NCBI GenBank assembly: GCA_964477125.1
Contig: CAYZCZ010000001.1
Location: forward strand, 43,790-107,789
DNA: 64,000 nt
Direction of reading: 5' to 3'
Origin: an uncultured Candidatus Saccharibacteria bacterium
Lineage (GTDB): Bacteria > Patescibacteriota > Saccharimonadia > Saccharimonadales > CAIOMD01
Shown in pieces: positions 18,122 to 45,875 of this stretch; position 1 is the stretch's first letter, and every line of letters starts with the position of its first letter. Below the pieces are notes generated by a model, which saw only the letters and a list, made by a program, of their open reading frames with translations, ran no database searches and had not been told where the DNA came from. The translations under genes and the position numbers were made by a program.

Positions 18122-19003
18122 TTACTTTATTGCCTGAGCTCCGGCACTTATTTCTGCTAATTCTTGTGTAATCGCCGCCTGGCGGGCATTATTAAATGCT
18201 AACGTTAAATCATCTATTAAGTCGCTAGCATTATCAGTAGCATTCTTCATTGCTAACATTCGTGACGCATGCTCGCTGGCAATAGACTCTAAAATAAATT
18301 GAGTAAGGCTAGCTTCTAAGTACAGTTTAGAAACATAATCTACTAAATACTCACCACTTGGCTCGTAAGTTTTCTCTAATACACTTGAATTATTACTATC
18401 CGGAGACGAAAGGGGCAAAATTTTTTCAGTGACAGTTTCTTGCTTAACAGTAGATGTGAATTTAGTATAAATTACATAAACTTCACTAACTTGGCCACTA
18501 GTAAATAAATCTATAGATTCTTTTAAAATAGGTTGGGCTAATCCACTATCGGCGTCTGCAACAGAAAGGGAGTAGGCGGCAATTTCATCTACTTCCTCTA
18601 AATTATAAGGGTCATCAACACCATTAATTTTGGTAACAAATAAGGAAGCGTAGCGACCTACACTTATAATTTTATGCCTAGTGGATCCTTCTTTTAAATG
18701 CTTCGTTAATGCTCTAATTACATTACTGTTGTAGGCACCAGCCAAACCACGGTCACTACTAATGGCAATAACTAGGGTGTGCTTGGCTTTATTCGTAGAA
18801 AATAATTTAGAACTGATAGAAGCGTTAGAGGCAGATAGCTCGCTAATTATTGATTTGGTAGCTTCTAAATAAGCCCTTGGGCCAGTGGCTGCTTCTTGGG
18901 CTTTTCTAAGCTTGCTAGCGGCAACTAATTGCATGGCTTTAGTAATCTGCCTAGTATTCGAGACAGATCCAATTCTTCCTTTAATTCCTTGCCCGGATGC
19001 CAT
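18122..19003 (-). CDS. atpG: F1 ATP synthase subunit gamma
   Basis: Conserved N-terminus (IKGRIGSVSNTRQITKAMQLVAASKLRKAQ) and C-terminus (ITQELAEI..GA.A). Confidence 0.9.
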   Translation of the reverse strand: MASGQGIKGRIGSVSNTRQITKAMQLVAASKLRKAQEAATGPRAYLEATKSIISELSASNASISSKLFSTNKAKHTLVIAISSDRGLAGAYNSNVIRALTKHLKEGSTRHKIISVGRYASLFVTKINGVDDPYNLEEVDEIAAYSLSVADADSGLAQPILKESIDLFTSGQVSEVYVIYTKFTSTVKQETVTEKILPLSSPDSNNSSVLEKTYEPSGEYLVDYVSKLYLEASLTQFILESIASEHASRMLAMKNATDNASDLIDDLTLAFNNARQAAITQELAEISAGAQAIK

Positions 19004-19009
19004 TAAGTT

Positions 19010-20557
19010 TTAAGCCTTTTTCCTTTCGCCAAAACTACTAGCTACTTTAACTGCAAGTTCGGAAATCACATTTAAATCTGATTTTTCCGGTTTTGTGCCA
19101 TCGTTAAGTGAGTTATACAGTTTCTTATGGTTTTCTTTAACGTTACTTATTAACTGATGAGCAGCCGGTTGTATATCTTTTTCATTCAATTCATCAAAAG
19201 CACCACTTGTAGCACCAATTAGAATTATCACTTGCTCGGCAACACTTAATGGCTGGTACTGTTTTTGCTTTAGAACTTCCGTTAACAAACGGCCCCTAGC
19301 AATACGTTTTTTAGTGTCTTCGTCTAAATCACTGGCGAACTGAGCAAAACTAGCAAGTTCCCTAAACTGGGCGAGTTCTAGCCTTAATGTTCCAGCAACA
19401 CTTTTAGTAGCTTTTGTTTGGGCAGCCCCACCAACACGGCTTACACTCAAACCAACAGAAATAGCTGGTCTTATGCCTTGATAGAATAAATTAGTCTCAA
19501 GAAATATCTGACCATCAGTAATTGAAATAACATTTGTTGGTATATAAGCACTAACATCGCCTGCTTGTGTTTCAATAATTGGCAATGCAGTAAGACTACC
19601 AGCACCGAGTTCGTCAGATAATTTGGCCGCTCGTTCCAATAAACGGGAATGCAAATAAAAAACATCACCAGGGTAAGCTTCACGGCCTGGTGGACGCTTT
19701 AATAGCAGTGACATTTGCCGGTAGGCAACAGCGTGCTTTGATAAATCATCATAGATAATTAATGAATGCCCCTTGGTATCACGAAAATATTCAGCCATAG
19801 CGGTACCAGAATATGGGGCTAAATATAGTAAGCTAGCAGGGTCGGCAGGGCTTGTAGCCACAACAATTGTTTGGTCCATTACTCCTTCGGTTTTTAGCCG
19901 ATCAACTAACGCAGCCACTTTTGCACGTTTTTGGCCTATAGCAACATATACGTTTACTACGCCAGTTTTTTGCTTGGCCTGGTTAATCATTGTATCTATA
20001 GCGATAGCTGTCTTACCAGTTTGGCGATCACCAATAATAAGTTCACGCTGACCACGTCCAATAGGAACCATTGTATCTATAGCAATAATACCGGTCGCCA
20101 ATGGTTCGTGGACGCTTTTACGATCCATAACACCAGGAGCATTACGTTCAATAAGGCCTTTTTTAGCAGTCTTAATTGGTCCTAATCCATCTAGCGGTCG
20201 ACCCAATGGGTCTACAACACGTCCAATAAGTTCTGAACCTACTGGAACTTCTAGCGTAGTGCCAGTAAGTGTTGCCTTGGCACCAGCACTTACGCCAATT
20301 TCACTGTCTAAAAGTACAGCACCAATTTCGTCTTCATTAAGGTTCAAGGCAAAAGCACGAGCAGGTGCAGATCCCTTAATTTCTATTTCAATTACATCAC
20401 TATAGCCACACTTTTTTAAACCATATACCCAAACAACACCATCACTAACCCTAGTGACAACGCCTGATGACTCAAAATCACCAGTTTGGCTAATGCCAGA
20501 AATGGCCGCCTCAAGCTCTTGGCTCAAATTTTTAACATTTAAATCATTCACATTCAT
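19010..20557 (-). CDS. atpA: F1 ATP synthase subunit alpha
   Basis: GDRQTGKT Walker A and the rest of the alpha-subunit core. Confidence 0.95.
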
Positions 20558-20568
20558 ACCTCTTTCAA

Positions 20569-20964
20569 CTATCCAATATTTTCAACTAGCTTTGCTAAGC
20601 TTCTTTTTACCGAACTATCTAACATGCCTTCTGGTAGTTCAATTTTTATGCCACCAATTAAGCTTTCGTCGCATAAAAACACAACTTCCATTTTTTCGGC
20701 ATTCATTTTTTTCTTTAACGACTCAGTGACATTTTTCTGCTCACTACTACTTAGTGGTTTTGCTGTTGAAACTTTGGCAAAATAGTATCCAGAATCGTCA
20801 GCAAGTACCTTGGCCACATCTAAGCTCAAATATTTTAATTCTTTAGATCGACCAGCATTCTTCATCCAGGCAGCAGCTCTATCTATGGCAATTTTGCGTG
20901 CCTTAGGATTACCAGATTTAATCTGTGTAGCCAAGTATTGAGCTGTTTGTGTCCTAGATGGCAT
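20569..20964 (-). CDS. atpH: F1 ATP synthase subunit delta (OSCP), unusually short at 131 aa
   Basis: C-terminal SLIGGIKIE... block typical of delta; the N-terminal domain is truncated relative to the usual 175-180 aa. Confidence 0.75.
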
Positions 20965-20967
20965 TTC

Positions 20968-21495
20968 TTACCTTAAAGCCTTTTCTATTAGTGCCTTATC
21001 TTTAGCAGTGTCCATTTTGTCACCAATAATTTCGGCGGATACTTCAGCAATTAACTTAGCATTTTCTTTCTTTAAGGCAACTTTTGCTTTATCTACTTCA
21101 ACTTTTAGCTGTTCTTTAGCTTCAAAAATAATGCGTTCCGACTTAACATTCGCTTTATCCTCAACCTGTTTTAACATTTTCGAAGCATCGTTTTGTGCAC
21201 TATGCAATAAATCTTCAGCTTGAGACCTAGCCTCTTTAAGTAAATCTTCGGCCTTAGCTTCGGCTTGATTTAGCTCATCAGACGCTTGTTTAGAGCGTTC
21301 TAGTCCAGCATCAATTTCTGCTCTACGCTCATCAATAGCTTTAAACAGTTTTTTCAAAACAAATTTATTTAAAAAGTAAACAATTATAGCAAAAGTGATT
21401 AACTGAAAAAGGAAAGCTTTCCAGTTTAAGCCAAGGGCACCGATACCACTAGCTTCTGGCTGGCTGGCTGTTTCTGAGGCAATATAATTTATCAC
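20968..21495 (-). CDS. atpF: Fo ATP synthase subunit b
   Basis: Single N-terminal TM helix followed by a long charged helix rich in A/E/K. Confidence 0.8.
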   Translation of the reverse strand: MINYIASETASQPEASGIGALGLNWKAFLFQLITFAIIVYFLNKFVLKKLFKAIDERRAEIDAGLERSKQASDELNQAEAKAEDLLKEARSQAEDLLHSAQNDASKMLKQVEDKANVKSERIIFEAKEQLKVEVDKAKVALKKENAKLIAEVSAEIIGDKMDTAKDKALIEKALR

Positions 21496-21523
21496 TATTT
21501 CTTACTAATCCTTATTAATTAAC

Positions 21524-21739
21524 TTACTTGGTTGTGAACACAATAAGTAGAACAAATACCATAATGGCGTCTACTAAGCCGGCCATAACAAGAGCCATAG
21601 TTAAGATTTTACTTTGGGCTTCTGGGTTACGACCTACAGAATTTACTGCAGCTGCTCCAATTAAACCCAAGCCTATAGCAGGCCCTACGGCGCCAATGGC
21701 AATTGTTATTCCTTTTACTAGTTCTGGTGTTATTTCCAT
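21524..21739 (-). CDS. atpE: Fo ATP synthase subunit c
   Basis: 71-aa two-helix hairpin protein with a conserved carboxylate in helix 2. Confidence 0.9.
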   Translation of the reverse strand: MEITPELVKGITIAIGAVGPAIGLGLIGAAAVNSVGRNPEAQSKILTMALVMAGLVDAIMVFVLLIVFTTK

Positions 21740-21761
21740 AATTTCTCCTTAACTTACTTGA

Positions 21762-22616
21762 TTAGGCTTTGGCACCTGCGGTGCTTTTAGCAATTTTATT
21801 AACTTTATTCTTACTATGGTCTTCCTTGTCGTGATTTTCATCATGCGCAGTACCCATAGCCAAATAAACGGACGATAACATAATAAACAAATATGCCTGA
21901 ATAAGCGAAAAGAATATTTCAAGCAATATTATAGGAATAGTCATAACAGGGGCCAAATTACCTGCAAGGCTGGTAATAACGTGTAGTAAGACCTCACCAG
22001 CATATATAACACCAAATAACCTTAAGGCCAAGGTAAGTAAGCGCACAAGCTCACTAAGTATTTCGATAAACCCTATAAAGAAGTTCATTGGGTTCCACCA
22101 TGGGGTCATAATACTAAAGTAATGTTTAATGTGCCCAAAAAATCCACGTTCTTTGATTGCAAAATACTGAACAGTCGCAATAGCAATAAATGCTAGTGCT
22201 AGCGTGCCATTAAGGTCAGTAGTGAATGGCCGTAGTAAGGCTGCCTTAATCCCTTCAGACGTTTCCACGTATATAGATCCGCCCATTCCGGGCAAAAGAC
22301 CACCTAGATTATTAATGAGTATAAAGGTAAAAAATGCTAAAAATAAGCCTAAAAACTTACGAGCCTTTTTTTCATCACCCATAAAGTTATTTTTTATTTC
22401 ACCCATTATAAAAATAGCTAGTATTTCAGTTGTAAACGCAAATTTAGAATTCGGCCTAGCCTTTATAAACAAGGCCATTGCACCAAAAATAACCATAATT
22501 ATAAGTGCAGTTAAGACACCCATTATCATTGAGTTGGTAATGGGGAAGTTGCCTATAGTAAAAATGGTTTCAGCACTTAAAGGTACAGTATCTCCACTTG
22601 CAAAAAAAGGTAACAT
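21762..22616 (-). CDS. atpB: Fo ATP synthase subunit a
   Basis: Polytopic protein with the conserved Arg-containing helix (LSLALRLFGVIYAGE). Confidence 0.9.
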   Translation of the reverse strand: MLPFFASGDTVPLSAETIFTIGNFPITNSMIMGVLTALIIMVIFGAMALFIKARPNSKFAFTTEILAIFIMGEIKNNFMGDEKKARKFLGLFLAFFTFILINNLGGLLPGMGGSIYVETSEGIKAALLRPFTTDLNGTLALAFIAIATVQYFAIKERGFFGHIKHYFSIMTPWWNPMNFFIGFIEILSELVRLLTLALRLFGVIYAGEVLLHVITSLAGNLAPVMTIPIILLEIFFSLIQAYLFIMLSSVYLAMGTAHDENHDKEDHSKNKVNKIAKSTAGAKA

Positions 22617-25482: not shown

Positions 25483-26360
25483 AGAAGAATCCCAAAGCTA
25501 TATATCAAGTCCAATTTAATTATTTTGTGAAACAGCTTGTTATTAAACTTATTTTGCCAACCACTTTTTAGGCTAAAGTGCACAAAAACTATGTATAAAC
25601 TAAAAAGGGATAGAGTACATAGCACCAACATACTAGCCATATTTTTACTAATGATACCGTATATTCCAGCTCCTATTAACAAATAGCCAAATATAGAAAC
25701 AATAATACTTACAAACCTAGTTATGCGTGGCCCAAAAGCAATTAAAAATGTTTTTTTATTATGTTCTTTATCTCCCTTAACATCTTTATAGTCTTTGAGC
25801 ATTGAAATCGCAAACCTCTGTAAAAATGTTCCTACTAGAATGGATACAAGTATTAAATAAGAATATGACGAACCGATACTACCTAAATAATATCCCAGAA
25901 GGAGCGGCAGAGTAGCCATGCAAAAAGTGAGTGAAATAATAGATAAATTTGGTTTTCTTGAAAGCCTTAGTGGCTTGCTGTTATAAGCATAAGCAAATAA
26001 TAAAGATAAAATTGCAAAAATACTTACTATTTCAAATTGTCCAGAAAGAAAAGCGCTAAATAATGTACCTAAAATCAACAACCAGCAGAATTGTTTGACA
26101 GTCTTTTTTTCAACTGCGTCCTTGCCATGCAAGCCATAATCACGGCCATTTGCTTTATCTATAGAGTAATCTTCAAGGTCATTATGTAATGTAGCAAACA
26201 TACTTAAGAATAAAACGGTTAAAAAAGAATAATAGTAGGTTCTGTCATTTAAAACTTCAATATAGGGATTCCCAATAAATGAACCAAAAAAAAATGCCGT
26301 TACTGGCATCAAGGCATTTTGTGGCCTAGACATTTTGATTAAATTTTGGAATGTCTCCAT
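25464..26360 (-). CDS. UbiA-superfamily aromatic/isoprenoid prenyltransferase
   Basis: NDLEDYSIDKAN (NDxxDxxxD) motif and about 8 TM helices. Confidence 0.7.
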   Translation of the reverse strand: METFQNLIKMSRPQNALMPVTAFFFGSFIGNPYIEVLNDRTYYYSFLTVLFLSMFATLHNDLEDYSIDKANGRDYGLHGKDAVEKKTVKQFCWLLILGTLFSAFLSGQFEIVSIFAILSLLFAYAYNSKPLRLSRKPNLSIISLTFCMATLPLLLGYYLGSIGSSYSYLILVSILVGTFLQRFAISMLKDYKDVKGDKEHNKKTFLIAFGPRITRFVSIIVSIFGYLLIGAGIYGIISKNMASMLVLCTLSLFSLYIVFVHFSLKSGWQNKFNNKLFHKIIKLDLIYSFGILLCLYIW

Positions 26361-26824
26361 TAACTATTTAATTCCCATAACCCCATAAACAAAGTGACAA
26401 TCCAAAAAGCCCCAATAGCCGTATAGCCCAATATTGGCATAACAATGATTAAAACAATTATCGAACCTAGTATTGCTCTATTTTTATTTGGCTTTTGGCT
26501 TTTTACATTTCTTACAACCTGTTTTATCAAAGAGTAACCTACAGAGGCTATGCCAATGATAAAGAAAAAGGCAACACCAATCATACTAGTTTTTTTATTA
26601 CCTACAATATAGCCAAAGATTACAACGACTGCAGCGAAAAATAAAAATAATTGAAATAGTCTCGATCGCATACCTGAGTCTAAGGTATCAAAAGGGTTCG
26701 GCTCACGAGGAGTAACATTTCCTTGGGCCAAAATAATATCTTTTTGTACTTTATCAATATTATTTTCTATAGATATATGATCAACATCATTATTTATTAT
26801 TGGACTTTTTTTATCTTCATTCAT
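26360..26824 (-). CDS. small 4-TM membrane protein, paralog 1 of 3
   Basis: Soluble N-terminal domain, then TM-TM, a basic linker and TM-TM; same layout as the next two genes. Confidence 0.5.
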   Translation of the reverse strand: MNEDKKSPIINNDVDHISIENNIDKVQKDIILAQGNVTPREPNPFDTLDSGMRSRLFQLFLFFAAVVVIFGYIVGNKKTSMIGVAFFFIIGIASVGYSLIKQVVRNVKSQKPNKNRAILGSIIVLIIVMPILGYTAIGAFWIVTLFMGLWELNS

Positions 26825-26858
26825 ACTAATATCCTATTAAATTTAATATTTATATAAC

Positions 26859-27365
26859 CTATGAGTTTGGCCCACCCGAAACAACCATTACAAACATAAG
26901 TACCACAACAAGGGAACCAATCGCAATTATCGGTCCGAATACAACTATCAGAAAAACCGAACCTAAGATTTTAATTAATTTTCCTAGTCCTTTATTTTCT
27001 ATGGGCTCAAAATCTAGTGATTTTTTTGGCTTGTGTAGAAAACTACCTACTAATGTTGAGGTCCCTAGTATAGTAACCGCAATTATTCCAATAACAGCAA
27101 TAGGAAAAACTTGAAAAATAAATGATAATACAGTGATGCATCCTAAGGCTAATAGAGCTGTTTCATTAGTTGAGCTTTTTACCTGTATATTGCTATTAAT
27201 TATCTGTATATTGCCTTGATATGCTTTTGACTCACCCTTATCAACATCAAAGATAGTAACTTGCTTTTGGCTATTGTTAAATGGTTGTCGGGCTCCATTA
27301 TCTTGCTGCATAAATTTATGACCCTTCGGGGTTAGATGCAGACCTACCCTCACAAGCATGACCAC
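26859..27365 (-). CDS. small 4-TM membrane protein, paralog 2 of 3
   Basis: Same architecture. The real start is probably the internal Met (MQQDNG, about 27311), which would remove the overlap with the next gene. Confidence 0.5.
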   Translation of the reverse strand: MVMLVRVGLHLTPKGHKFMQQDNGARQPFNNSQKQVTIFDVDKGESKAYQGNIQIINSNIQVKSSTNETALLALGCITVLSFIFQVFPIAVIGIIAVTILGTSTLVGSFLHKPKKSLDFEPIENKGLGKLIKILGSVFLIVVFGPIIAIGSLVVVLMFVMVVSGGPNS

Positions 27366-27729
27366 ATCTTATTAATGCAATAACAATAATAGCAACTACT
27401 AAAGGAGGTATTATGGCCACAAATAACCCTATCGCCACGAATACGACCTTTAACAATCTTGATTTGCGATCATCTGTTGAATTACTTACAGCGGGTCGAA
27501 TTATCGCATTTGCAAGGCTGGCTACACCAAGAATAAATAAAATTGGAATTGAAATCATTAGAATTTGAGGCGATGGAATAATAAACCCAACGACAGTGAT
27601 TATTCCTAAAAACAATAGTACGTAGTTAACGTATTGTTGGTACTTATTTTTTTTAGGTAAATCAGAGTTAATGCTATCTACATTATTATCAAAAGCTGTT
27701 CTCTCGGTACTAAGATTATCGTTTTCCAT
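27316..27729 (-). CDS. small 4-TM membrane protein, paralog 3 of 3
   Basis: Same architecture, with the basic linker STDDRKSR between the helix pairs. Confidence 0.5.
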   Translation of the reverse strand: MENDNLSTERTAFDNNVDSINSDLPKKNKYQQYVNYVLLFLGIITVVGFIIPSPQILMISIPILFILGVASLANAIIRPAVSNSTDDRKSRLLKVVFVAIGLFVAIIPPLVVAIIVIALIRCGHACEGRSASNPEGS

Positions 27730-29007: not shown

Positions 29008-29698
29008 CTTATTAATTATATTCACAGTTATATTTGTTGTTGGATATTTTTTGTCATATTATCTGTACAAAATAAACAATAAACAATTCAAAAAATCAGC
29101 TTTGCAAATAAAAATACTACTTTGGATTCCTATTTTTGCAGTGTTTTTAGTATTTATTTATGGGAATATAGCAATTAAATATATAGTTATTACATTTATT
29201 CTAATAAATGTAATAGTAGAAGTACTAAATAACTATCAAAAATCTAAACAAAAATCTGTAGTTGTAGCATACGGATTATTAATAAGCCTATGTATTCTAA
29301 CCATATTACCCATTAGCGTAAATAGCAATGTACTAGTAATAGCCCTTTGTTTTAGCTCCGTTATGTCTGATGTATTCGCATTTTTCTTTGGCAATTTTTT
29401 TGGCAGACATAAATTACCACCATTTATTAACAATAAGAAGAACTGGGAAGGGGTAATCGGCCAAATTGTTGGCGCATTTATTGGAATAGTGCTAATAAAT
29501 TCTTTTGTAGGACATATCAACTTACTAATATTTATTCCAATTGCCCTTGGCTCTGCTTTAGGGGATCTTATTAACAGCACAGTTAAAAGAAAAGAAAACA
29601 TAAAAGATTGGTCTAGCTCTTTGCCGGGTCACGGTGGGTATTTAGATAGATTTAGCAGTCTTGGCATTGCATGCCTATTAGTTTTCTTAACACTCTAA
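28991..29698 (+). CDS. cdsA: phosphatidate cytidylyltransferase (CDP-diglyceride synthase)
   Basis: C-terminal signature KRKENIKDWSSSLPGHGGYLDRFSS. Start placed at the internal ATG (MPNLTN) rather than the tracked 28871, which would overlap plsY by 137 nt. Confidence 0.85.
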   Translation: MPNLTNLLIIFTVIFVVGYFLSYYLYKINNKQFKKSALQIKILLWIPIFAVFLVFIYGNIAIKYIVITFILINVIVEVLNNYQKSKQKSVVVAYGLLISLCILTILPISVNSNVLVIALCFSSVMSDVFAFFFGNFFGRHKLPPFINNKKNWEGVIGQIVGAFIGIVLINSFVGHINLLIFIPIALGSALGDLINSTVKRKENIKDWSSSLPGHGGYLDRFSSLGIACLLVFLTL

Positions 29699-30120
29699 TT
29701 ATTAATTAATATGTACGGCTTCTTAATAAAAAGAAAAGATTTTATATGCTTACCTGAAGCTTTAATAATATGAGTGTGTTGGTGGGCTGGCACCGTTTTA
29801 GTAGTATTGTTAATTCCGCGTGCGAAAACATCGTAGCCGTTACTTTCGTATTTAGACATTAAACCAAATATTTCATTTTTTTCTACAGAATCCAAATCGT
29901 TGAACGTACCAACGTGCCGTTTCGGAACAATCATTAGATGATCTATTACAATTTGCTGATCCCAATAACTATATGGGAAGTCATTTTTAATCACATAACA
30001 ACTTTCAAGTTTTTCAACTATTTCTCGTTTATTCATATCTTCACAAAAAGGGCAGTGGTTGTTATCTACGGTTTGTAAAAATTTTTTATAATTATTTCTA
30101 GATTGTCTATTTCTGTACAT
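29695..30120 (-). CDS. HIT-family (histidine triad) nucleotide hydrolase/transferase
   Basis: HQHTHII histidine-triad motif near the C-terminus. Confidence 0.65.
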   Translation of the reverse strand: MYRNRQSRNNYKKFLQTVDNNHCPFCEDMNKREIVEKLESCYVIKNDFPYSYWDQQIVIDHLMIVPKRHVGTFNDLDSVEKNEIFGLMSKYESNGYDVFARGINNTTKTVPAHQHTHIIKASGKHIKSFLFIKKPYILINN

Positions 30121-30182: not shown

Positions 30183-30767
30183 ATGAAAAATAAGCATAAC
30201 TTTAACAGAAAATATACTTGGGCAATTCTTTTATTAAGTTCAGTAATTGGGCTTATAGCCTCTTTCGTACAAGCAATAGAAAGGATAGACTACGCTAAAA
30301 ATCCCAAGCTTCCATTAAGCTGTGATGTAAATTCAGTATTTAGCTGTAGTAATGTTTTTGATGCTTGGCAATCTTCGGTCTTTGGTTTTTCTAACAGCCT
30401 AATGTGCATAGTCTTTTTCACCCTTATATTAGGAGTAGCCTTGGCCGGTATTACTGGGAGTTTAATAAAAACCAAACTTAAGTATTTAATGCAGTTTTTT
30501 TCTATATTTTTCTTGGGTTTTGGAGCCTGGTATTTACACCAAAGCGCATTTGTTATTGATAGCCTCTGTATTTTTTGTATATTCTGCTACAGTGCAGTTA
30601 TTGCAATTAACTGGGCTTGGCTGAGGTTAAACGTGGCTGACTATAAACTGTCTCAAAACAGTAGAAATAAAGTTAATAAAGCTCTTAGTAGCGGTATTGA
30701 TACATTTTTATGGGTACTATGGGCAATCATTATTGCCAGTATGTTATACGTAGGAATTAAATACTAA
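30183..30767 (+). CDS. vitamin K epoxide reductase (VKOR) family protein
   Basis: Four to five TM helices, a CxxC (CIFC) in the last helix, and Cys pairs in the loop. Confidence 0.6.
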   Translation: MKNKHNFNRKYTWAILLLSSVIGLIASFVQAIERIDYAKNPKLPLSCDVNSVFSCSNVFDAWQSSVFGFSNSLMCIVFFTLILGVALAGITGSLIKTKLKYLMQFFSIFFLGFGAWYLHQSAFVIDSLCIFCIFCYSAVIAINWAWLRLNVADYKLSQNSRNKVNKALSSGIDTFLWVLWAIIIASMLYVGIKY

Positions 30768-30770
30768 GTT

Positions 30771-31937
30771 TTACAACTTTTTAAGGCTAGATTCTAGTGA
30801 CTTAATAATATCTTGGGCACCTTCGAACCCTACCGATAACCTAAAGAAACTTTTACTAATGCCAAGGCTTTGACGTTTTTCGTCCGATAAACTTCTATGG
30901 CTCATTGTAGCTGGGTGTGAAATTATCGTTTCCGGGCTAGCTAAGCTTTCGGCAAATACAATAATTTCATTCTTTTGAATATCTGTTACAAATTTTTTCA
31001 GATTCTCATACCTGGTTTCGTTGAGCTCTAGTGAAATAACTCCGCCAAATCCGTTTTTTGCATAAACTGCATCAAAACTATTTTGTTTCTTTAACGCAGG
31101 ATAATTAACCTTTTTTATCTTAGGGTGAGTTTGTAAAAATTTAGCAACCTCATCAGCAGTGTCGCTTACTCTACGCCATCTTAAACCCAATGTTTTTAGC
31201 TCTTGTATAAATCTGTAGCTTTCGTCGGGGCTCAACAGGGCACCAACCGACCACTGCAACCAAACATGACGTTCGTGCCATTTTTTGTTTTTGGTAATTA
31301 AAGCCCCACCTAAGCAATCGTTGTGACCACCAAAATATTTGCTTAAACTATATAAAACGGTACCAGCTCCGTAATCAAATGGATTAATGCTCGAGGGTGG
31401 TGTAAAAGTAGCGTCAACAACAAGTTCTAGCTTATGTTTTTTAGCAATTTTTGAAACTCTCGTTAAGTCAGTAACATTTAAAGATGGGTTAGTTATTGTT
31501 TCTACAAAAATTGCCTTGGTAGTTGGCTTGAACGCTTTGGCTACTTCTTTTTCATTCTCAACATCTATGTGACTTACCAATATGCCATAATCTTTAAAAA
31601 GCTGTTCTAAAAGCCGTACAGTTCCACCATATAGTTCTTTCCCGCAAATAATATGGTCGCCAGGCAAAAAATTAAACAATAACATTGTTGTTGCAGCGTC
31701 GCCTGAACCGAAAACAGTTGCTTGGCCTTGGCCTAGGATTAACTCAAGCTTTTTTTCTAAAATACTTCGTGTTGGGTTTTTGCCACGTGAATATGCCCAA
31801 GCAGATTCAACTCCAAATTCTGGCTGTCTGAAAGTTTTAGTCCTAACCAACAGTGGAGCAATTGCCCCAAACTGGGCATCAGGTGATTCACCGGCATGGA
31901 CAAACTTAGTGTTAAGAGATTGATAATTTTTTGACAT
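30771..31937 (-). CDS. PLP-dependent Cys/Met-metabolism enzyme (cystathionine gamma-synthase / O-acylhomoserine sulfhydrylase family)
   Basis: SLSKYFGGHNDCLGGAL PLP-lysine region and overall family pattern; preceded by a SAM riboswitch. Confidence 0.85.
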   Translation of the reverse strand: MSKNYQSLNTKFVHAGESPDAQFGAIAPLLVRTKTFRQPEFGVESAWAYSRGKNPTRSILEKKLELILGQGQATVFGSGDAATTMLLFNFLPGDHIICGKELYGGTVRLLEQLFKDYGILVSHIDVENEKEVAKAFKPTTKAIFVETITNPSLNVTDLTRVSKIAKKHKLELVVDATFTPPSSINPFDYGAGTVLYSLSKYFGGHNDCLGGALITKNKKWHERHVWLQWSVGALLSPDESYRFIQELKTLGLRWRRVSDTADEVAKFLQTHPKIKKVNYPALKKQNSFDAVYAKNGFGGVISLELNETRYENLKKFVTDIQKNEIIVFAESLASPETIISHPATMSHRSLSDEKRQSLGISKSFFRLSVGFEGAQDIIKSLESSLKKL

Positions 31938-31939: not shown

Positions 31940-32085
31940 ATATCCTTTCATATACAAGTGTGAAAAGATATAAATGCATATCATTGCCACACTTGTGGCC
32001 TAGTTGGAGCACCTTTCCCAATATTGTTGGATAGGTTGCTGACAGGTCGTTGGGCTAGATCCCTCGCTGCACTCTTGATATTAAA
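31940..32085 (-). promoter_or_regulatory. SAM-I (S-box) riboswitch in the leader of the Met-pathway gene
   Basis: Minus-strand RNA reads AUAUCAAGAG-UGCAG-CGAGGGA-UCUAGCCC-AACGACC-UGUCAGCAACC-[P3 CCAAcaauaUUGG]-GGUGCUCCAACUAGGCC-[P4 CCACAagUGUGG]-CAAUGAUAU. The AUAUC/GAUAU pair closes P1; the rest is a following AU hairpin, a U-run and the AAAGGA RBS. Confidence 0.8.
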
Positions 32086-32164: not shown

Positions 32165-33379
32165 GTGATTGTGGTAAAAAGCAATAAAAAACGACGCCGA
32201 ATAATTATTGCATGCGCAGTAATACTTTTAATCAGTTCAGCTATCTTGACTTTTTACTGGAACAAAAACCAATCTAATTCCAAAATAGAACCAGCAGTAT
32301 ATGGTCAGGAAATAAAAAAACCAACAATAGTGTCTGCAAGCAGTAGGTTACTAATAGTGGGGGATGTTTTTTGGGGCAGACAATATGAAAGAAAACGACT
32401 GAACAACGAACCGAATGCAATTCAATTCCCATTTTCTGGTTTAGCGTCTTACGATAAAGCTAAATATAACTCCTGGATTGCGGACGTAGAATGCCCAATT
32501 ACAGACAGAAATATTGATTTTCAAACACAATGGGATGCCATAGCTCTTAACTGCCGACCTGAATTTACCAGCGAATTTGCAAAATGGTTCGATATTGCCA
32601 CTCTAGCCAATAACCATATGTATGATATTGACCAAGAAGTTGGCTATGAATCTACCACCGCTAACCTAGACAAAAATAATATTCAGTATTTTGGTCATTA
32701 CCTTGCTTCAAAGCACGATAAAGCATGCAAAGTTATTACTGTAGGTATAGATTTAAAATACTCAGACAATACAAATAAGAAATCTAAGCTACCCCTTGCT
32801 ATGTGTGGTTACCACGGAGTAATATCTATACCAACTCCTGAAGACATCGCTGAAATAAGTAAATACTCTGATAAGTTTATTACTATTGTCATGCCTCATA
32901 TGGGAGTTGAATATCAGGCTAAAGCTGATGGTATTAAAACTACAACTTACCGTGCAATGGTAGACGCTGGAGCCGACTTAATTGCTGGGGGCCATCCGCA
33001 CTGGGTGCAAAATACTGAGGTCTATAAAAATAAATTAATTGTTTACAGCCTAGGAAACTTTATCTTTGACCAGCAAGGAAGCAATGATGTTCAAAGATCA
33101 ATTGCTTTAGACGCCACTATGGAATTTTCATCTCCAGAACAAATTAATATTTTGGAAAAATGGCTAGCACTATCAGGTGATTGTATGAATATTGCTAGTT
33201 GTTCGAATGAAAAATTAGCCAATGTTTCAAAAGCTGTATCGTTGCCAAAAATAAACTATGACCTTATAGTTGGCCAGCAAAAAGGTTTGGTTCAGGCAAA
33301 ATCAACGGACATTGCGACCATCAACCAAGTTTTGACAAGGGCTTCATGGGCCAGCACCAAAGCCAATTTAGGCCAATAA
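32165..33379 (+). CDS. CapA-family protein (poly-gamma-glutamate synthesis / metallophosphatase fold)
   Basis: N-terminal TM anchor and a metallophosphoesterase signature (GGHPHWVQ, GNFIFDQ). Confidence 0.7.
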   Translation: MIVVKSNKKRRRIIIACAVILLISSAILTFYWNKNQSNSKIEPAVYGQEIKKPTIVSASSRLLIVGDVFWGRQYERKRLNNEPNAIQFPFSGLASYDKAKYNSWIADVECPITDRNIDFQTQWDAIALNCRPEFTSEFAKWFDIATLANNHMYDIDQEVGYESTTANLDKNNIQYFGHYLASKHDKACKVITVGIDLKYSDNTNKKSKLPLAMCGYHGVISIPTPEDIAEISKYSDKFITIVMPHMGVEYQAKADGIKTTTYRAMVDAGADLIAGGHPHWVQNTEVYKNKLIVYSLGNFIFDQQGSNDVQRSIALDATMEFSSPEQINILEKWLALSGDCMNIASCSNEKLANVSKAVSLPKINYDLIVGQQKGLVQAKSTDIATINQVLTRASWASTKANLGQ

Positions 33380-36303: not shown

Positions 36304-36906
36304 CTATTTCTCGTCGTGACCTTTGATGGCAGATTCAACTACATCACGAGGAAGGGAAGCTGCATTTAGCAGTGCTTCTCGTACCTTTTCGGCAGTGTCT
36401 CCGCCAATTGAGGTAGCTGCTTCTAACGTTCCACCAACCGCTGCCTTGGCAGCATCTGCTGTATTCGTACCGGTTTCGCCAGCTGCCTTAATCGCACCTT
36501 GCACAGCGCCAACTGCAGCCTGACCTACGTCACCACCTGTTTCTGAAACACCCTTTACTATACCTTGAGCACCACCAGAAATTGCTTCTATTACATCTCC
36601 ACCTACCTGAGAAACACCTGCTACAACGCCACTCATTGTGTTTATTGAAACGTCAACTATAGAGCCACCTACTTGGCCGGCACCTTTTACAATTCCATCA
36701 GCTACAGAAGCTACTGTTTCAACAGTTGTACTTCCAACTTCACCAACTCCTTGTAACACATTAACAACTTGGTGCTTAGCAGTGCCAGTAACGGCACCTA
36801 AGACATCATCCACGCCATTTATAGCAGAAACAACCGCTCCTGAAGCTTCATCAATAATCTTTGCTAACATTTTACATCTCCTTATATTACTTATGCTTAT
36901 CAACAT
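36304..36906 (-). CDS. Gly/Val/Ala-rich protein built from about 13 tandem 11-residue repeats (LEA/synuclein/apolipoprotein-like amphipathic repeat protein)
   Basis: The sequence can be cut into 11-mers (VVSAINGVDDV LGAVTGTAKHQ VVNVLQGVGEV GSTTVETVASV ...). The locus is noticeably more G+C-rich and has its own terminator. The start is probably the second Met (MLAKII). Confidence 0.6.
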   Translation of the reverse strand: MLISISNIRRCKMLAKIIDEASGAVVSAINGVDDVLGAVTGTAKHQVVNVLQGVGEVGSTTVETVASVADGIVKGAGQVGGSIVDVSINTMSGVVAGVSQVGGDVIEAISGGAQGIVKGVSETGGDVGQAAVGAVQGAIKAAGETGTNTADAAKAAVGGTLEAATSIGGDTAEKVREALLNAASLPRDVVESAIKGHDEK

Positions 36907-38722: not shown

Positions 38723-40420
38723 TTACGGTATTTTAATATTATATTTTTCTTTATATTCCTCTAAAGCATCGCCTAAGGTTGTAAAATGTGGTGCCCGTTG
38801 TAAGTAGCCGGATAGGGGGCTGGTATGACTGACAGTTGTTCTAACAGTGCCTTTCATTCTGGCAACTGCTAATACAATTTTACGTTTTTTTAATTCTGCA
38901 ATTACACCTGAAAGCATTTGAGCAGAAGTAGAATCTATTGAAGTTATAGTTTCAGCATCCCATAAAAACCATTTTATGGGTTCTTCAGACTCACTAATTA
39001 GTCGCAGAATTCTCTCACGGAAATAGCTAGAATTGCCAAAGAATAAAGGTGCATCAAACCTATATATTATAAGACCCTCTATGGCTACGGTTTTCGGTGG
39101 ACGAGCCATGTCCCTAAAGCTTCCATCTTTTGCTAAACCAAGTACTGCATCTTTAGGAAAAGCTGTTCTTCGAATAAGATTGCCAATAGCCAGTAACACA
39201 GCTAGCATTAGGCCCTGAAATATACCTAAGGTTATTACCCCTATTACAGTTACTATTGCCAAAATTGCTTCGCTTTTCCAAGCTTTCCATATGGCTTTAA
39301 GTTCTACATAGTCAAACAATTTACTAATAGCTAAAATAATTATTACTGCTAATGCAGATACAGGTAAGTTAGATAAGAATGACCCTAAAAATAATAGTGA
39401 TAAGGCAATTACGGCAGCTCCAAATATTTGGGAGACTTGCGTTTTTGGTTTACTATCAAAATTTACAGCCGATCGGGACGCGCTAGCAGATACGGGCATG
39501 CCACCAAATAAGCCACTTGCTATATTAGATGCTCCTAAACCGAAAAACTCTTGGTTTGGTTTAACTTCTTCGTTCTTTTTAGCTGCGTAGGTTCTAGATA
39601 TTGCAATAGTGTTAGCGTAGCCTATAACAGTAATCGCTAACGCTGGCACTATTAAGTTTTGCAAATCTATCGGTTGGACTGACGGTAAATGCGGAAATGG
39701 CAAGCCAGTAGGAACATAGCCTAAAACCGTGATGCCACTGGCATTAAAATTGAAAATTATTGAAACTATGGTTGCCCCTAACAAAAGTAACAACGCCACA
39801 GGCATTCTTCTAAACTTCATTCCTAGCAGTATACCTATACACATTAGAGTAAAGCTAAGAGCCATAGTGGCAGCGTTCCAAGAATAGACATTACTTAAAA
39901 TATATGTAATCGAACCGAAGAAATTAGTATTAACAGGAATTTCTAGCCCGAATAGTTTTGGCACTTGGCTGGCAATTACTACCAAAGCTAAGCCCGCCAT
40001 ATAACCAAGCATTATTGGTCTTGACAAAAATTCACCGATAAAACTTAACCGCGCAAATACTGCAATAATACAAAAAATACCTATAAATATTGACAGCAAA
40101 ACAATGAGAGCAGCGGTTCTAGACGCATCACCTCCAGCAAGTGGTATTACCGTAGCACCGGCGAGTGCCGCCATTGCTGCATCTGGGCCTACTGTAACAT
40201 AACGGGTACTACTAAATACTGCAAAAACCAGCATGCCAATTAGTGCAGCGTATAAACCCATTGCGATTTCAACGCCTGCTAATTGGGCATAAGCCATAGA
40301 TTGAGGTATTGCAACCGCCGCAACCGTTGCACCTGCCAAGATATCTCTTCTAAGCCAACGAGTTGGATACGTTTTTAAAGTTTTGAGCAAGTTAAGCTTT
40401 ATATTTATTTTTTCTTGCAT
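38723..40420 (-). CDS. SulP-family anion transporter with a C-terminal STAS domain
   Basis: N-terminal sulfate-transporter motifs (AGxTVAAVAIPQSMAYA), about 11 TM helices, and a C-terminal STAS domain. Confidence 0.85.
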   Translation of the reverse strand: MQEKINIKLNLLKTLKTYPTRWLRRDILAGATVAAVAIPQSMAYAQLAGVEIAMGLYAALIGMLVFAVFSSTRYVTVGPDAAMAALAGATVIPLAGGDASRTAALIVLLSIFIGIFCIIAVFARLSFIGEFLSRPIMLGYMAGLALVVIASQVPKLFGLEIPVNTNFFGSITYILSNVYSWNAATMALSFTLMCIGILLGMKFRRMPVALLLLLGATIVSIIFNFNASGITVLGYVPTGLPFPHLPSVQPIDLQNLIVPALAITVIGYANTIAISRTYAAKKNEEVKPNQEFFGLGASNIASGLFGGMPVSASASRSAVNFDSKPKTQVSQIFGAAVIALSLLFLGSFLSNLPVSALAVIIILAISKLFDYVELKAIWKAWKSEAILAIVTVIGVITLGIFQGLMLAVLLAIGNLIRRTAFPKDAVLGLAKDGSFRDMARPPKTVAIEGLIIYRFDAPLFFGNSSYFRERILRLISESEEPIKWFLWDAETITSIDSTSAQMLSGVIAELKKRKIVLAVARMKGTVRTTVSHTSPLSGYLQRAPHFTTLGDALEEYKEKYNIKIP

Positions 40421-41139: not shown

Positions 41140-42009
41140 TTATGGCAACCAAGCATTTAATGAAATTAACGTGCTAAAAACTAATAAAACAACTAATGAA
41201 AAACTAAACATGGTATGTGCCCATTTTATACCTTCTTCTGACCGAATGGCTTTTAGTCCTAAAAATAGCCAGTAAATAGTAACTCCTAACATTACAATTA
41301 GGTAGATATAACTCAGTTCAGCAACAAAGAAAAGCATAGTCATGGTCATTCCTAGGGCGATTATATATGCGTTAATTTGCTTCTTGGTTTTTTGTAATCC
41401 CTTAATAGCGGGTAATACTGGTACCCCAGCTTTTTTATAATCATTTAGCCTAAATATTGCTATGGCATAAAAATGAGGCATTTGCCAAAAAACTAATATC
41501 AAAAATAATAGTCCCGCGGTAATGTCTATTTGATTTGTCACTGCAGTATAACCTGCAACCGGAGGCACGGCTCCGGAAACAGAGCCAACTAAAGTACCGT
41601 AAATATTTTTCCGCTTAAATATACTGTACATCACCAAATAAAAAAATAATCCAACCAGCCCACATGCAAGAGTTAGATAGTTCGTAAAGAAAGCAAGCAA
41701 TAGAGCGCCAGCAATTCCTAAAATACTGCCATAAATAATTGCATTTCTATTACTAATAGTTCCTGTAACGAGAGCTCTTTTTTTTGTACGAGACATATAT
41801 ATATCAATATCTTTATCAAGATAATTATTTATAACGCATCCGCAAGCAATGATTAACGAAGTTCCACCTAAAAGAGCCAGCATTAGACTAAAATTAATAA
41901 CCCCGTCACTAGCTAGTAAAAAACCTGCTAGAGCAACAATTAAATTACCCCTTATAATTCCTGGCTTTGTAAGCAAATAGTATTGTCGTAAGGTTTTTAT
42001 GAAAATCAC
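41140..42009 (-). CDS. cyoE: protoheme IX farnesyltransferase (heme O synthase)
   Basis: UbiA-fold protein with the CyoE/CtaB motifs (NNYLDKDIDIYMSRTKKR). Confidence 0.85.
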   Translation of the reverse strand: MIFIKTLRQYYLLTKPGIIRGNLIVALAGFLLASDGVINFSLMLALLGGTSLIIACGCVINNYLDKDIDIYMSRTKKRALVTGTISNRNAIIYGSILGIAGALLLAFFTNYLTLACGLVGLFFYLVMYSIFKRKNIYGTLVGSVSGAVPPVAGYTAVTNQIDITAGLLFLILVFWQMPHFYAIAIFRLNDYKKAGVPVLPAIKGLQKTKKQINAYIIALGMTMTMLFFVAELSYIYLIVMLGVTIYWLFLGLKAIRSEEGIKWAHTMFSFSLVVLLVFSTLISLNAWLP

Positions 42010-42389
42010 TCTTTATGGATTAATTCATCATCAATTAATTTTTGATCAGTTTCGTGGGCGGGGGACATATTGTAATCTAGGTTATACATAATCCACATTG
42101 ATCCAATGAATATTATTGCCACAACCATTGCTCCAAACAGAAAAGCCATTAATTTCCATCTTGGTCTAGTCTCTTGGCCAATATGTAAAAAGAATATCAG
42201 CTGTACAATAAGCTGAATAAAAGCTAGCCCCAAAATTATAGGCACAACTAATTCATGCTTCAGGGTTTCGTGGCCCGAAACTACATGTAACTGCACTATA
42301 CCGAACGCGATTAGTGTCATTAAAATGGATAAACTAAATCCAGCAATATACTGCCTTATATTTGGCTGATGCATTTTCAAATTTTTCAT
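42006..42389 (-). CDS. cyoD: quinol oxidase subunit IV
   Basis: 127-aa 3-TM protein in the operon position of cyoD/qoxD. Confidence 0.7.
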   Translation of the reverse strand: MKNLKMHQPNIRQYIAGFSLSILMTLIAFGIVQLHVVSGHETLKHELVVPIILGLAFIQLIVQLIFFLHIGQETRPRWKLMAFLFGAMVVAIIFIGSMWIMYNLDYNMSPAHETDQKLIDDELIHKE

Positions 42390-43006
42390 GAGCTAACCGC
42401 TCCTATTAGATAAACAAAACTAAATATAAATATCCAAACTATGTCCAAAAAATGCCAGAATAAACTAAATAATGTCAGCCTTAAAACAGTCGAGCTTGTA
42501 AGTCCTTTTTTGACTATCATTACTACTAATACCGCCAACCAGGTAAGGCCAATAGTAATATGAAGCCCGTGAGTGCCAACTAGGGTAAAGAATGATGATA
42601 AAAATGCACTGGCTTTCCAGCTATAACCTTCTTTAACCAAATTACTAAACTCAGCAATTTCCATACCTACAAAGGCAATACCCAATAGAAAGGATACAAA
42701 CAGCCACAGTAGCGTTTTAGAGGTATCTCGTTGGCGGGCGGATAAAATTGCTAACCCAGTAACAAAACTGCTAGTTAGCAACAGCATTGTTTCGATAAAC
42801 ACGTAAGGTAAGCTGAATAATTCACTAGCGTCAGGTCCACCATTAGTATTTTTATGCAATACAGCGTATACCGCAAATAAGCAAGCAAAAATAACCAAGT
42901 CGGTCATTAAATAAATCCAAAAGCCCAAGGTTACCTTAGAATTATTTTCCTCAATACGCTTGCTACTAATATTACTCATAGATAACCCCCCTAGCTTTGC
43001 CTTCAA
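42386..43006 (-). CDS. cyoC: quinol oxidase subunit III
   Basis: 5-TM subunit III fold. The start is probably the internal Met (MSNISSK, about 42979), which would remove the overlap with cyoB. Confidence 0.8.
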
Positions 43007-44948
43007 GTAGGGCGACAGTTTTTGCTGGCATTACATATTCTGTATGATCATCGAACGAACGAACAATAATTGTTACGACAGTACTTATAAAAGCAAATAT
43101 AGCTAGCCACCAAATATGCCATACCACGCAAAAACCAAACAAAGTTACCAGGCCTGCAATAATAACTGCCAACGGAGTGTTCTTTGGCATTTCAATATCA
43201 TGATATTTTGGTTTTTCTAGTCCAGTAACTTTAGCCGTTTTAGAAACCCAAAAAGCATCACGTGCATAGACATTTGGAATTAGAGCAAAATTATATATTT
43301 TAGCAGGCGATGAGGTAGCCCATTCTAAGGTTCTACCATCCCATGGATCACCACTTTTATCAATATTTTTCTTTCGCTGCAAGACACTAACCACTAATTG
43401 CAATACAGTGAAGCCTACGCCGGCTCCAATTATTAATAATCCCACACCGGAAACAATAAACAAACCTTGCCAACCCATAGAACTATCGTAATGGTTCAAC
43501 CTACGCGTTGCCCCCATAATTCCTAATGCATAAATAGGTAGGAAAGTAACCATAAAACCAATTATCCAACACCAAGCCGAGTATCTTCCAAGCCTATCGT
43601 TTAGTTTAAAGCCAAATATCTTAGGGAACCAGTATACTAGCCCTGCCATATAAGTAAATACTACTCCTCCTATGACCATATTATGGAAATGAGCCACTAA
43701 GAATAAGCTATTATGAACCTGAAAATCTATAGCTGGCACAGCCATTAAAACACCAGTCACTCCGCCAATGGTAAAGGTTACAATAAAGCCCAAAAACCAT
43801 ACCATTGGTGTAGGGAAAGTTATTTTACCCCTGTACATTGTAAATAACCAGTTGAATACTTTAACGCCCGTGGGAATGGCAATAACCATGGTCATTATTC
43901 CAAAAAAGGCGTTAACATTTGCGCCTGCACCCATAGTAAAGAAATGATGAAGCCAAACAACGTAGGATAAAAAGGTAATTGCGACAATTGCCCAAACCAT
44001 ACTGGTATATCCAAATAGTCTTTTACGACTAAACGTGGCTACTACCTCAGACAAAATCCCAAAACCTGGGAGCATTAATATGTATACCTCTGGGTGACCC
44101 CAAGCCCAAATTAAATTTACATACATCATTGGGTTACCACCGGCTGTAGATGTGAAGAAATTCATTCCCATAAGCCTGTCTAATGACAATAAAGCTAAAC
44201 TAACTGTTAGTATGGGGAAAGCGAACAATATAAGAACCATGCTTCCTAGTACCGTCCAAACAAATATTGGCATTTTCATGAGTGTCATACCTGGTGCGCG
44301 CATTTTTAGAATTGTTGTGGTGAAGTTTATCCCTGAGAGCAGGCTACCAATACCAGCAATCTGCAGGGCCCAAATCCAGTAATCTACACCAACACCAGGG
44401 CTATATTGTATGCCAGAAAGTGGCGGGTAGGCTAACCATCCAGCAGCTGAAAACTCGCCAATACCTAATGATACATTTACCAAAATCATGCCCCCGGTGA
44501 ATAACCAAAAACTAACTGCATTCAAAAATGGGAAGGCAACATCGCGTGAACCGATCATAAGTGGCAATACAACATTAATCAGCCCAAACATCAGTCCCAT
44601 AGCTACAAAAAATATCATTATTGTACCGTGTGCCGTAAATATTTGCTGGAAATGATCGGCATCTAAAAAGCCTTGGCTAGAGCCAGAAGCAATAGCTTGC
44701 TGAGCTTTTAGCATCACAGCGTCGGCAAATCCACGCAGTAGCATCACAAAAGCAACCACAATATACATAATTCCAATTTTTTTGTGGTCTGTTGTTGTTA
44801 TATAGTTCTTCCACAACCAACCCCACTTTTTAAAATAGGTAAGGCCGGCAATAATCGCTATAAGGCTTAATATCATGCCAGCAACAGCACCCATTATTAC
44901 AATGTCATGCTGGAATGCGTCAATGCCTAGTTTACCTGTAATACTCAT
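42972..44948 (-). CDS. cyoB: heme-copper quinol oxidase subunit I
   Basis: 658 aa with 12+ TM helices and the heme/CuB His ligands (WAHHMF..., HHFFTMG...) conserved. Confidence 0.9.
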
Positions 44949-45875
44949 TTATTCAGTTCCATGGCTATTCATTTCTTTCGTTTCTGTATGATTACCCACA
45001 TTGCTAGAGCCCTTAAAAGTTGGCTCCATATACTTCATAATTATTTCATTATACAGATTATTATCTTTTAGCGAATAAATTACTACAGAGTTATTTGTAG
45101 AAGGCTCAGCAAGTTTTTGATATTCTGCCCAGCTCAAATATGAAGAAGATTCCTGAGATTTTGCAACCCAGTTTTCGAATTCAGTTTTAGTCGTTGCGTT
45201 AGTTTTAAAATCCATACCGGCAAAACCTTGGCCACTTAAATTAGCTGATGAACCGTCATACACACCAGGCTTATCAGCAATGAGATGCAACTTTGTTTGC
45301 ATGCCTGCCATTGCATAAATTTGACCACCAAGCTGTGGTATCCAAAACGAGTTCATTGGTGCATCGGCTGTAATTTCAAAATTTATAGGAGTATTTATTG
45401 GTATATTCAATTCATTTACACTGGCAATGTTTTGCTCTGGATAAATAAATAACCATTTCCAGTCCATTGCAACAACCTGAACTGTCAAAGGCTTAACAGA
45501 AGACTCAAGTTTTTTATATGGGTCCAAAGAATGACTTGTCTTCCAGGTTACAATACTTAAAATTAGAATAATTACTATTGGTATTGTCCACCATACAAAT
45601 TCAAGTTTTTTGTTTGAGTCCCATTCGGGCATATATTTTGCCTTTGAATTATTTGCTCTATATTTCCAAGCGAAAACAAAAGTCATAATAAACACTGGAA
45701 CTACTATTAACAATGACAAAGCTAGCGTAAACATAATTAAATTTTTTTGTTTTTGGGCAATTTCACCAGCAGGATTTAGAACAGCAAAATTTAATCCATT
45801 TAGTAGGAAGTAAGAACCAATTAATGACAAAATGCCAATGATTAATACTAAAAATATTACTGCTTTATTTTTCAT
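44949..45875 (-). CDS. cyoA: quinol oxidase subunit II (no CuA site)
   Basis: Signal/TM anchor plus a cupredoxin-like domain lacking the CuA Cys/His cluster, as expected for quinol (not cytochrome c) oxidases. Confidence 0.8.
   Translation of the reverse strand: MKNKAVIFLVLIIGILSLIGSYFLLNGLNFAVLNPAGEIAQKQKNLIMFTLALSLLIVVPVFIMTFVFAWKYRANNSKAKYMPEWDSNKKLEFVWWTIPIVIILILSIVTWKTSHSLDPYKKLESSVKPLTVQVVAMDWKWLFIYPEQNIASVNELNIPINTPINFEITADAPMNSFWIPQLGGQIYAMAGMQTKLHLIADKPGVYDGSSANLSGQGFAGMDFKTNATTKTEFENWVAKSQESSSYLSWAEYQKLAEPSTNNSVVIYSLKDNNLYNEIIMKYMEPTFKGSSNVGNHTETKEMNSHGTE

Follow-up and report, generated by a model that had tools for sequence, protein, structure and literature searches.

A class I SAM riboswitch, probably acting on translation, in the leader of a Cys/Met-metabolism PLP-dependent enzyme gene of Saccharimonadia

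The window, meaning the whole 64-kb stretch of DNA that was analysed, carries on its minus strand a gene for a 388-aa PLP-dependent enzyme of cysteine/methionine metabolism, preceded by a structured leader (Table 1). The gene is monocistronic, since the next gene downstream, encoding a VKOR protein (30183–30767), is convergent; the upstream neighbour, a PGA_cap gene (32165–33379), is divergent. It had been described in a first-pass annotation of the sequence as the only methionine-pathway gene, which holds for the window: Pfam scans of the 55 other window ORFs detected no other gene of the Met/SAM cycle, with no match for metK, metE/H, metA/X, luxS, pfs or ahcY. The N-terminus of the enzyme aligns with those of 38 homologues, M1 being nearly invariant. 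No NCBIfam equivalog passes its cut-off for the enzyme, the best partial matches being to cystathionine gamma-synthase, bifunctional cystathionine gamma-lyase/homocysteine desulfhydrase and cystathionine beta-lyase. The nearest solved structures are mixed (MccB-type CGL/homocysteine desulfhydrase, CGS, CBL and MGL), and with no equivalog cut-off reached and such mixed PDB neighbours, assignment to a single subfamily was dropped.

The named relatives of two window proteins place the host in Saccharimonadia (TM7, CPR), which agrees with the genome-reduced organism assumed earlier. Most homologues of the PLP enzyme at 54–68% identity derive from MAGs that bear the name Candidatus Saccharimonadales or Patescibacteria, and the named homologues of the ATP synthase beta subunit (AtpD) of the window, at 83–85% identity, belong to Candidatus Saccharibacteria, Saccharimonadia or Patescibacteria, with an identical copy present in public assemblies. 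A scan with the enzyme of a set of representative genome contigs, from which the species is absent, gave matches of at most 38% identity (Victivallales and others), and these loci were not used. With regard to the remainder of the window, an F1Fo ATP synthase operon is located at 16491–22616 and a quinol-oxidase-type haem-copper oxidase cluster at 41140–45875 (minus strand), comprising COX3, COX1 and COX2 with a COX_ARM motif and adjoined by a UbiA-family gene, probably for haem O synthase. The oxidase cluster and the ATP synthase suggest a capacity for aerobic respiration in a Saccharimonadia genome. At 8592–10552 a gene for a Vut_1 transporter (putative queuosine-precursor/vitamin uptake) overlaps tail-to-tail with a gene for TGT (tRNA-guanine transglycosylase), a pair consistent with queuine/preQ salvage. 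A PAS-GGDEF diguanylate cyclase gene (46949–48409, plus strand) would imply cyclic-di-GMP signalling in a CPR genome. Two further minus-strand regions encode proteins with no Pfam match: three consecutive ORFs of 154, 168 and 137 aa at 26360–27729, with hydrophobic, membrane-like C-terminal halves, which may be a paralogous membrane-protein cluster, and a 200-aa Gly/Ala/Val-rich protein with repetitive G-x-V-G-style segments at 36304–36906.

Table 1. Features of the leader and of the gene that it precedes, in order along the transcript (CM, covariance model; MFE, minimum free energy fold; R1, covariance model built for the lineage).
Feature	Position in window	Strand	Basis
SAM-I aptamer, complete P1–P4 four-way junction	31975..32084	−	RF00162 52.4 bits; R1 92 bits; MFE
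P1 5' strand UUAAUAUC	32077..32084	−	CM alignment
AUCAAGAG block	32079-32072	−	sequence
P2 (GCAG/CUGU + GGG/CCC)	32041..32072	−	CM alignment, covariation
GAGGGA block	32065-32060	−	sequence
P2 loop CUAG, pseudoknot strand	32058-32055	−	pairs with J3/4 CUAG
AGCCC block	32056-32052	−	sequence
P3, with the conserved GCAACC and GGUGC blocks	32008..32040	−	CM alignment, covariation
GCAACC block	32039-32034	−	sequence
GGUGC block	32013-32009	−	sequence
J3/4 CUAG, pseudoknot partner of P2 loop	32000..32003	−	covariation
P4 hairpin GCCAC-AAGU-GUGGC, closed by an A-U pair	31983..32004	−	CM alignment, MFE, covariation
Anti-sequestor 5' strand ACAAGUGUGGCAAUGAUAU (P4 loop/3' strand + J4/1 + P1 3' strand)	31978..31996	−	pairing search, folding
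GAUAU block	31982-31978	−	sequence
P1 3' strand GAUAUGCA	31975..31982	−	CM alignment, MFE
Sequestor 5' arm GCAUUUAUAUCUUUUCA (anti-AUG + anti-SD)	31961..31977	−	hairpin fold
Anti-sequestor 3' strand AUAUCUUUUCACACUUGU (anti-SD arm + sequestor loop)	31954..31971	−	duplex energy, nascent folding
Sequestor 3' arm UGAAAGGAUAUAAAUGU, holds SD and start codon	31934..31950	−	hairpin fold
Shine-Dalgarno (SD) GAAAGGA, 5 nt 5' of AUG	31943..31949	−	sequence
AUG start codon of PLP enzyme	31935..31937	−	ORF list
388-aa Cys/Met-metabolism PLP-dependent enzyme (CGS/CGL/CBL-like)	30771..31937	−	PF01053 (Cys_Met_Meta_PP) 1e-106

To identify the leader, both strands of the window were searched with Rfam cmscan, and RF00162 (SAM-I, S-box leader) was the sole family above its gathering threshold. 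The match, at 32084–31975 on the minus strand (E 3.4e-9), spans positions 1–108 of the 108 of the model and is not truncated. The first-pass annotation had recognised an S-box leader from its sequence blocks, and all of these blocks were found on the minus strand and in order. Neither of the two outcomes that it had named as refuting was seen: the RF00162 score exceeds gathering (52.4 versus 44.4 bits), and the alignment to the covariance model contains the P1–P4 four-way junction, for which 23 orthologous leaders supply covariation. Known examples of RF00162 are the yitJ and metI leaders of B. subtilis, together with the structure of the T. tengcongensis metF aptamer. The related families SAM-IV and SAM-I-IV (clan CL00012) gave no better match than RF00162, it being noted that cmscan reports only the best overlapping clan member, and the canonical P4 is situated between J3/4 and P1, unlike the SAM-IV/SAM-I-IV arrangement. 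An MFE fold made blind to the family also recovered P1, P2, P3 and P4 (z −3.6), with none of 200 shuffles folding as well.

The effective helix of P1 consists of AUAUC/GAUAU and a single U-A pair at the end. It is short and AU-rich, and the covariance-model alignment marks two pairs of P1 as non-canonical, which counts against the mechanism proposed below. The 3' strand is common to P1, to the anti-sequestor described below and, through GCA, to the base of the sequestor. The ligand-pocket blocks UAUCAAGAG, GCAACC, GGUGC and GAU (in P1, J1/2 and P3) are all present in the window, most of their positions being invariant or nearly so across the 23 orthologues, and they include what we take to be the ligand contacts of the T. 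tengcongensis aptamer, namely A6, U7, G11, C44–A46, U57, G58, A87 and U88. In the putative kink-turn region of P2, where tandem sheared G-A pairs would be expected, an asymmetric internal loop is present with CGAC in the window versus the consensus UGAA; the majority of the 23 sequences have G and A at columns 46 and 47, G46 being nearly invariant.

To further investigate the conservation of the leader, related loci were collected, 71 of them from a metagenome scan with alignment of the enzyme and six from context look-ups. Of 40 loci scanned with Rfam, 24 have an RF00162 match above gathering immediately 5' of the gene and in its orientation. Of these aptamers 23 were then aligned and the pairs counted for an explicit structure of P1–P4 plus the pseudoknot. 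Standard pairs occupy 88.5% of cells, as against 31–44% when the 3' partners were slid by 1–3 columns, and changes on both sides were seen for 18 pairs, the pseudoknot included; the observed covariation score was reached by none of 500 shuffles. Column 4–155 of P1 shows UA/AU/GC exchanges among relatives, P2 is paired in 100% and 97% of cells with compensatory CG↔UA, GC↔AU and GC↔AU changes, P3 is 92% paired with both-side changes in six of its ten pairs, and the pseudoknot between the P2 loop and J3/4 is paired in 93% of cells, with pair 35–126 changing from AU to GC in four sequences. By every criterion that can be tested on sequence the element is thereby confirmed as a genuine SAM-I (RF00162) riboswitch, and as such it would be expected to bind SAM.

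With the lineage covariance model R1 the aptamer was detected in 43 of 81 sources; in every case it lies 5' of the gene on the same strand, and the window has a single match, with a score in the middle of the range of the orthologous matches. By our count R1 found the aptamer at 42 of the 59 orthologous loci whose upstream sequence reaches 150 nt or more, which indicates that the association of aptamer and gene is an ancestral feature widely retained in Saccharimonadia. The remaining 17 of the 59 (L015, L017, L026, L030, L033–L038, L042, L046 and L052–L056) gave no SAM-I match, and no other Rfam family exceeded gathering upstream of the gene at the aptamer-less loci L015, L017, L026, L030, L033, L034, L036–L038, L042 and L046. 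Part of the lineage has either lost the riboswitch or never possessed it. An independent metagenome assembly (L005) carries the leader of the window unchanged; its contig is near-identical, syntenic and from an aquatic metagenome. It should also be noted that at three loci (L039:128–550, L045:2071–2492 and L024:2152–2477) the aptamer lies 190–300 nt 5' of the enzyme start, with a long structured spacer after a hairpin, and that a 125-nt aptamer match at L060:2372–2496 reaches or passes the enzyme start expected from the alignment (~2492).

Between the aptamer and the AUG there are 37 nt, and the expression platform includes a 17-bp hairpin, referred to here as the sequestor, which adjoins P1 directly with a gap of 0 nt. 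Its stability was calculated as −17.3 kcal/mol (z −5.2), and none of 200 shuffles was as stable. The GAAAGGA of its 3' arm forms a duplex of −9.4 kcal/mol with a generic anti-SD, and relatives carry the same GAAAGGA in the 3' arm of their hairpin. An AU hairpin, a U-run and an RBS had previously been described as following the aptamer; all three are present, but they are not successive, being parts of this one hairpin with the U-run (UCUUUUC) in the 5' arm and the RBS and AUG in the 3' arm. The 3' arm ends in AUAAAUGU and continues with CAAAAAAUUAUC (CAAAAAA), without a U-tract, and a terminator scan detected no terminator in the window leader. No convincing sigma-70-like promoter was found between 32085 and 32164. 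With no terminator in the leader, and with both SD and AUG inside the sequestor, control at the level of translation is favoured over control at the level of transcription, a choice that the first-pass annotation had left to be made.

A second helix, the anti-sequestor, can form between the 3' part of the aptamer and the anti-SD arm of the platform. It comprises 17 pairs, including a perfect 9-mer (ACAAGUGUG/CACACUUGU), and it excludes both the sequestor and P1, as it shares the P1 3' strand and P4. The duplex energy was −18.3 kcal/mol versus −8.7 ± 2.2 kcal/mol for dinucleotide shuffles of the platform strand, only one of 2000 being as good. In simulated nascent transcripts ending at 31952–31944, an interval in which the anti-SD arm is already made and the SD arm is incomplete, the anti-sequestor is the MFE structure; afterwards the combination of aptamer and sequestor takes over. 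For the full-length apo RNA, aptamer plus sequestor was computed at −45.3 kcal/mol and the anti-sequestor state at −37.2 kcal/mol, a gap of ~8 kcal/mol, and the computed probability of being unpaired is ~0 from the SD to the AUG even without SAM. Switching at equilibrium was rejected on this account, the apo full-length ensemble keeping SD and AUG paired.

The platforms of the related leaders fall into two groups. In one (for example L013, L016, L018, L023, L027–29, L032 and L040) a GC-rich hairpin with a U-tract lies 20–40 nt before the AUG, and a simple scanner scored the leader of L028 as terminator-like. The second group, to which the nearest relatives of the window belong, has the same aptamer and gene together with a hairpin of the form (U)AUCCUUUC–loop–GAAAGGAU(A), in which the anti-SD pairs with the SD as 3' arm; in L007–L012, L014, L049, L064, L069, L071 and L078–L081 this is followed by U5–7 and then by the AUG. 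Leaders of this kind were not called as terminators by the simple scanner (L014 and L080), and on that result a role as 'dual terminators', with termination of transcription as an additional activity, is no more than possible. The window and L006 fall into the second group as well, with two differences: GGAUAUAAAUG stands in place of the U-tract GGAUAUUUUUAUG of the relatives, and the stem extends over the AUG. By sequence these two platforms look like purely translational derivatives.

The alternative pairing also recurs in the second group. In 16 of 17 SD-hairpin leaders the nascent MFE structure holds a helix of 8–23 pairs between the 3' part of the aptamer and the anti-SD arm. In most of these leaders the aptamer ends in a conserved GGGAAAGAUAU, an SD look-alike similar to the SD arm GAAAGGAUAU, which pairs with the anti-SD of that arm and could thereby titrate it. 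In L006, the closest divergent relative, both partner segments differ from those of the window and the outer helix is kept through one A-U to U-A exchange.

Built from an identified aptamer and two alternative helices that have statistical support and are conserved, the leader is best read as a class I SAM riboswitch that acts as a translational OFF switch for a single Cys/Met PLP enzyme, a reading to which we assign a probability of roughly 0.8. With SAM bound, P1 (AUAUC/GAUAU) and P4 would be locked in the aptamer, leaving 31977–31961 free to pair with 31950–31934 as the 17-bp hairpin abutting P1, which would bury GAAAGGA and the AUG and so block 30S initiation. When SAM is scarce, 31996–31978 would capture 31971–31954 co-transcriptionally, and once the anti-sequestor has formed the SD and AUG would emerge single-stranded. 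The OFF logic of SAM proposed in the first-pass annotation fits this anatomy with its SD/AUG sequestor. The parts of the scheme that we infer are the binding of SAM, the direction in which it regulates and the kinetic nature of an ON state reached during transcription. The main weakness is thermodynamic: as the SD stays paired at the computed apo equilibrium, the ON state must, on these models, either be kinetic or need help, and would depend on a kinetic trap of which coupled translation makes use, on ribosome capture or on an unmodelled factor.

The classical S-box arrangement, in which binding of SAM allows a terminator to fold behind the aptamer and transcription to end ahead of the gene, has precedent in that most characterised SAM-I switches work in this manner (PMC7270179), and the U-tracts behind the GC-rich hairpins of many orthologous leaders, as well as those placed straight after the SD-containing hairpin of closer relatives, point the same way. 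At the window locus, however, the hairpin runs into CAAAAAA, the stem is AU-rich and itself contains SD and AUG, and the U-tract of the relatives has been replaced. Attenuation of transcription was rejected here on the lack of a terminator in the leader, and we consider it very unlikely. The 8 kcal/mol gap, which keeps SD and AUG paired without ligand at equilibrium, can also be taken to mean that the aptamer binds SAM but that derepression needs a second input, the hairpin otherwise being a near-constitutive brake on translation. Such a situation is known from the SAM-I_Xcc riboswitch of Xanthomonas campestris, where the SD is likewise sequestered when SAM-free and is freed by a tRNA (PMC7270179). 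Against it, the statistically unusual anti-sequestor and its recurrence in 16 of 17 relatives suffice for a conventional kinetic switch, and nothing in the window points to a tRNA-binding site; a second input is considered unlikely.

The aptamer might also be a decaying, non-functional relic kept in a reduced genome. Its Rfam score lies just 8 bits over gathering, P1 has two mismatches, and the orthologous loci without an aptamer imply that loss is possible. Yet the conserved blocks are all complete, as is the pseudoknot, the R1 score of 92 bits is mid-range among orthologous matches, the platform holds two coordinated alternative helices and the leader recurs unchanged in the L005 assembly, which together make decay highly improbable.

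The proposed translational OFF switch may be compared more closely with SAM-I_Xcc, the single translational SAM-I that is well characterised. In that riboswitch the SAM-bound state sequesters both SD and AUG, and without SAM the SD stays paired until uncharged tRNAfMet binds the anti-SD and relieves it (PMC7270179). Both are mainly translational SAM-I elements with SD and AUG held in a hairpin in the SAM-bound form and with no Rho-independent terminator, and in both the SD of the apo form is paired, as observed in Xcc and as predicted in the window. They differ in that the Xcc platform is long (P5–P7) and takes uncharged tRNAfMet as a second signal, whereas the platform of the window is much more compact and consists of the single 17-bp hairpin and a simple anti-sequestor, with no second signal indicated. 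With the S-box leaders of RF00162 the element shares the P1–P4 junction, the P2-loop/J3-4 pseudoknot, the conserved pocket nucleotides, a regulated Cys/Met PLP enzyme as for B. subtilis metI/metC, and a P1 3' strand that is shared with an alternative helix. It differs from them in having alternative helices that control access to SD and AUG in place of an intrinsic terminator, and in its host, which belongs to the Saccharimonadia (CPR/Patescibacteria) and is not a Firmicute.

Repression by SAM would imply, on the S-box precedent only, that the PLP enzyme works toward homocysteine/methionine supply and not toward degradation. The gene neighbours in three relatives suggest the same role. In L058 the aptamer (646–743) is followed by a terminator-like hairpin, by a gene for a Sat-CysC fusion of 559 aa combining ATP-sulfurylase and APS-kinase (PUA_2/ATP-sulfurylase/APS_kinase; 807–2486) and by the PLP enzyme gene (2492–3658), and by its gene content L058:646–3658 would seem to be a CPR operon for sulfate activation under the control of SAM. 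In L079:7180–9221 the aptamer precedes a PAPS_reduct-family gene and then the PLP enzyme gene, and in L081:7849–11004 the order on one strand is aptamer, PLP enzyme, PAPS_reduct-family gene (218 aa) and metK. Among the loci examined these partners are not conserved, PAPS_reduct being restricted to L079 and L081, metK to L081 and Sat-CysC to L058, with none in the window; sulfate-activation and metK partners were therefore rejected as a general feature, being confined to three loci. The apparent link of riboswitch and enzyme to sulfate assimilation is no more than a lead. The coupling to sulfate-activation genes and metK in relatives hints at methionine synthesis rather than at import alone, which the first-pass annotation had raised as a possibility. 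It was also observed that a HIT-family gene lies just upstream in L078, L079 and L081, and that a weak HIT-like ORF (29695–30120, with an HQHTH motif) lies nearby in the window. A gene for a SulP-family sulfate permease with a STAS domain is located at 38723–40420 on the minus strand of the window, ~7 kb from the riboswitch-controlled gene.

Taken further, it may be proposed, tentatively and with considerable doubt, that in environmental Saccharimonadia the SAM-I element marks a small SAM-repressed module leading from sulfur assimilation through homocysteine/methionine to SAM, the parts of which would be the Sat-CysC fusion, the PAPS-reductase-like protein, the PLP enzyme and MetK, as found in riboswitch units of relatives, and the SulP of the window. 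CPR bacteria are generally regarded as amino-acid auxotrophs. If the proposal were true, some of them would synthesise methionine with sulfur of inorganic or host origin, and the PLP enzyme would be a sulfhydrylase or gamma-synthase and not a degradative lyase.

With regard to riboswitch biology, the element belongs to the known SAM-I class and nothing in it is categorically new. A literature search of limited coverage found no description of natural riboswitches in Saccharibacteria/Patescibacteria, returning only mentions of synthetic tools and unrelated text; riboswitches have been named by Patescibacteria researchers as candidate tools for the control of expression (PMC11665869). The present analysis documents the SAM-I riboswitch as widespread in Saccharimonadia and describes a compact platform in which one hairpin abutting P1 sequesters both SD and AUG. 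A single orthologous gene offers a natural series of platforms, from the terminator through the SD-in-hairpin with U-tract to the pure SD/AUG sequestor. A SAM-repressed PLP enzyme would provide a handle on the sulfur and methionine metabolism of CPR bacteria and may be of use for CPR genetics.
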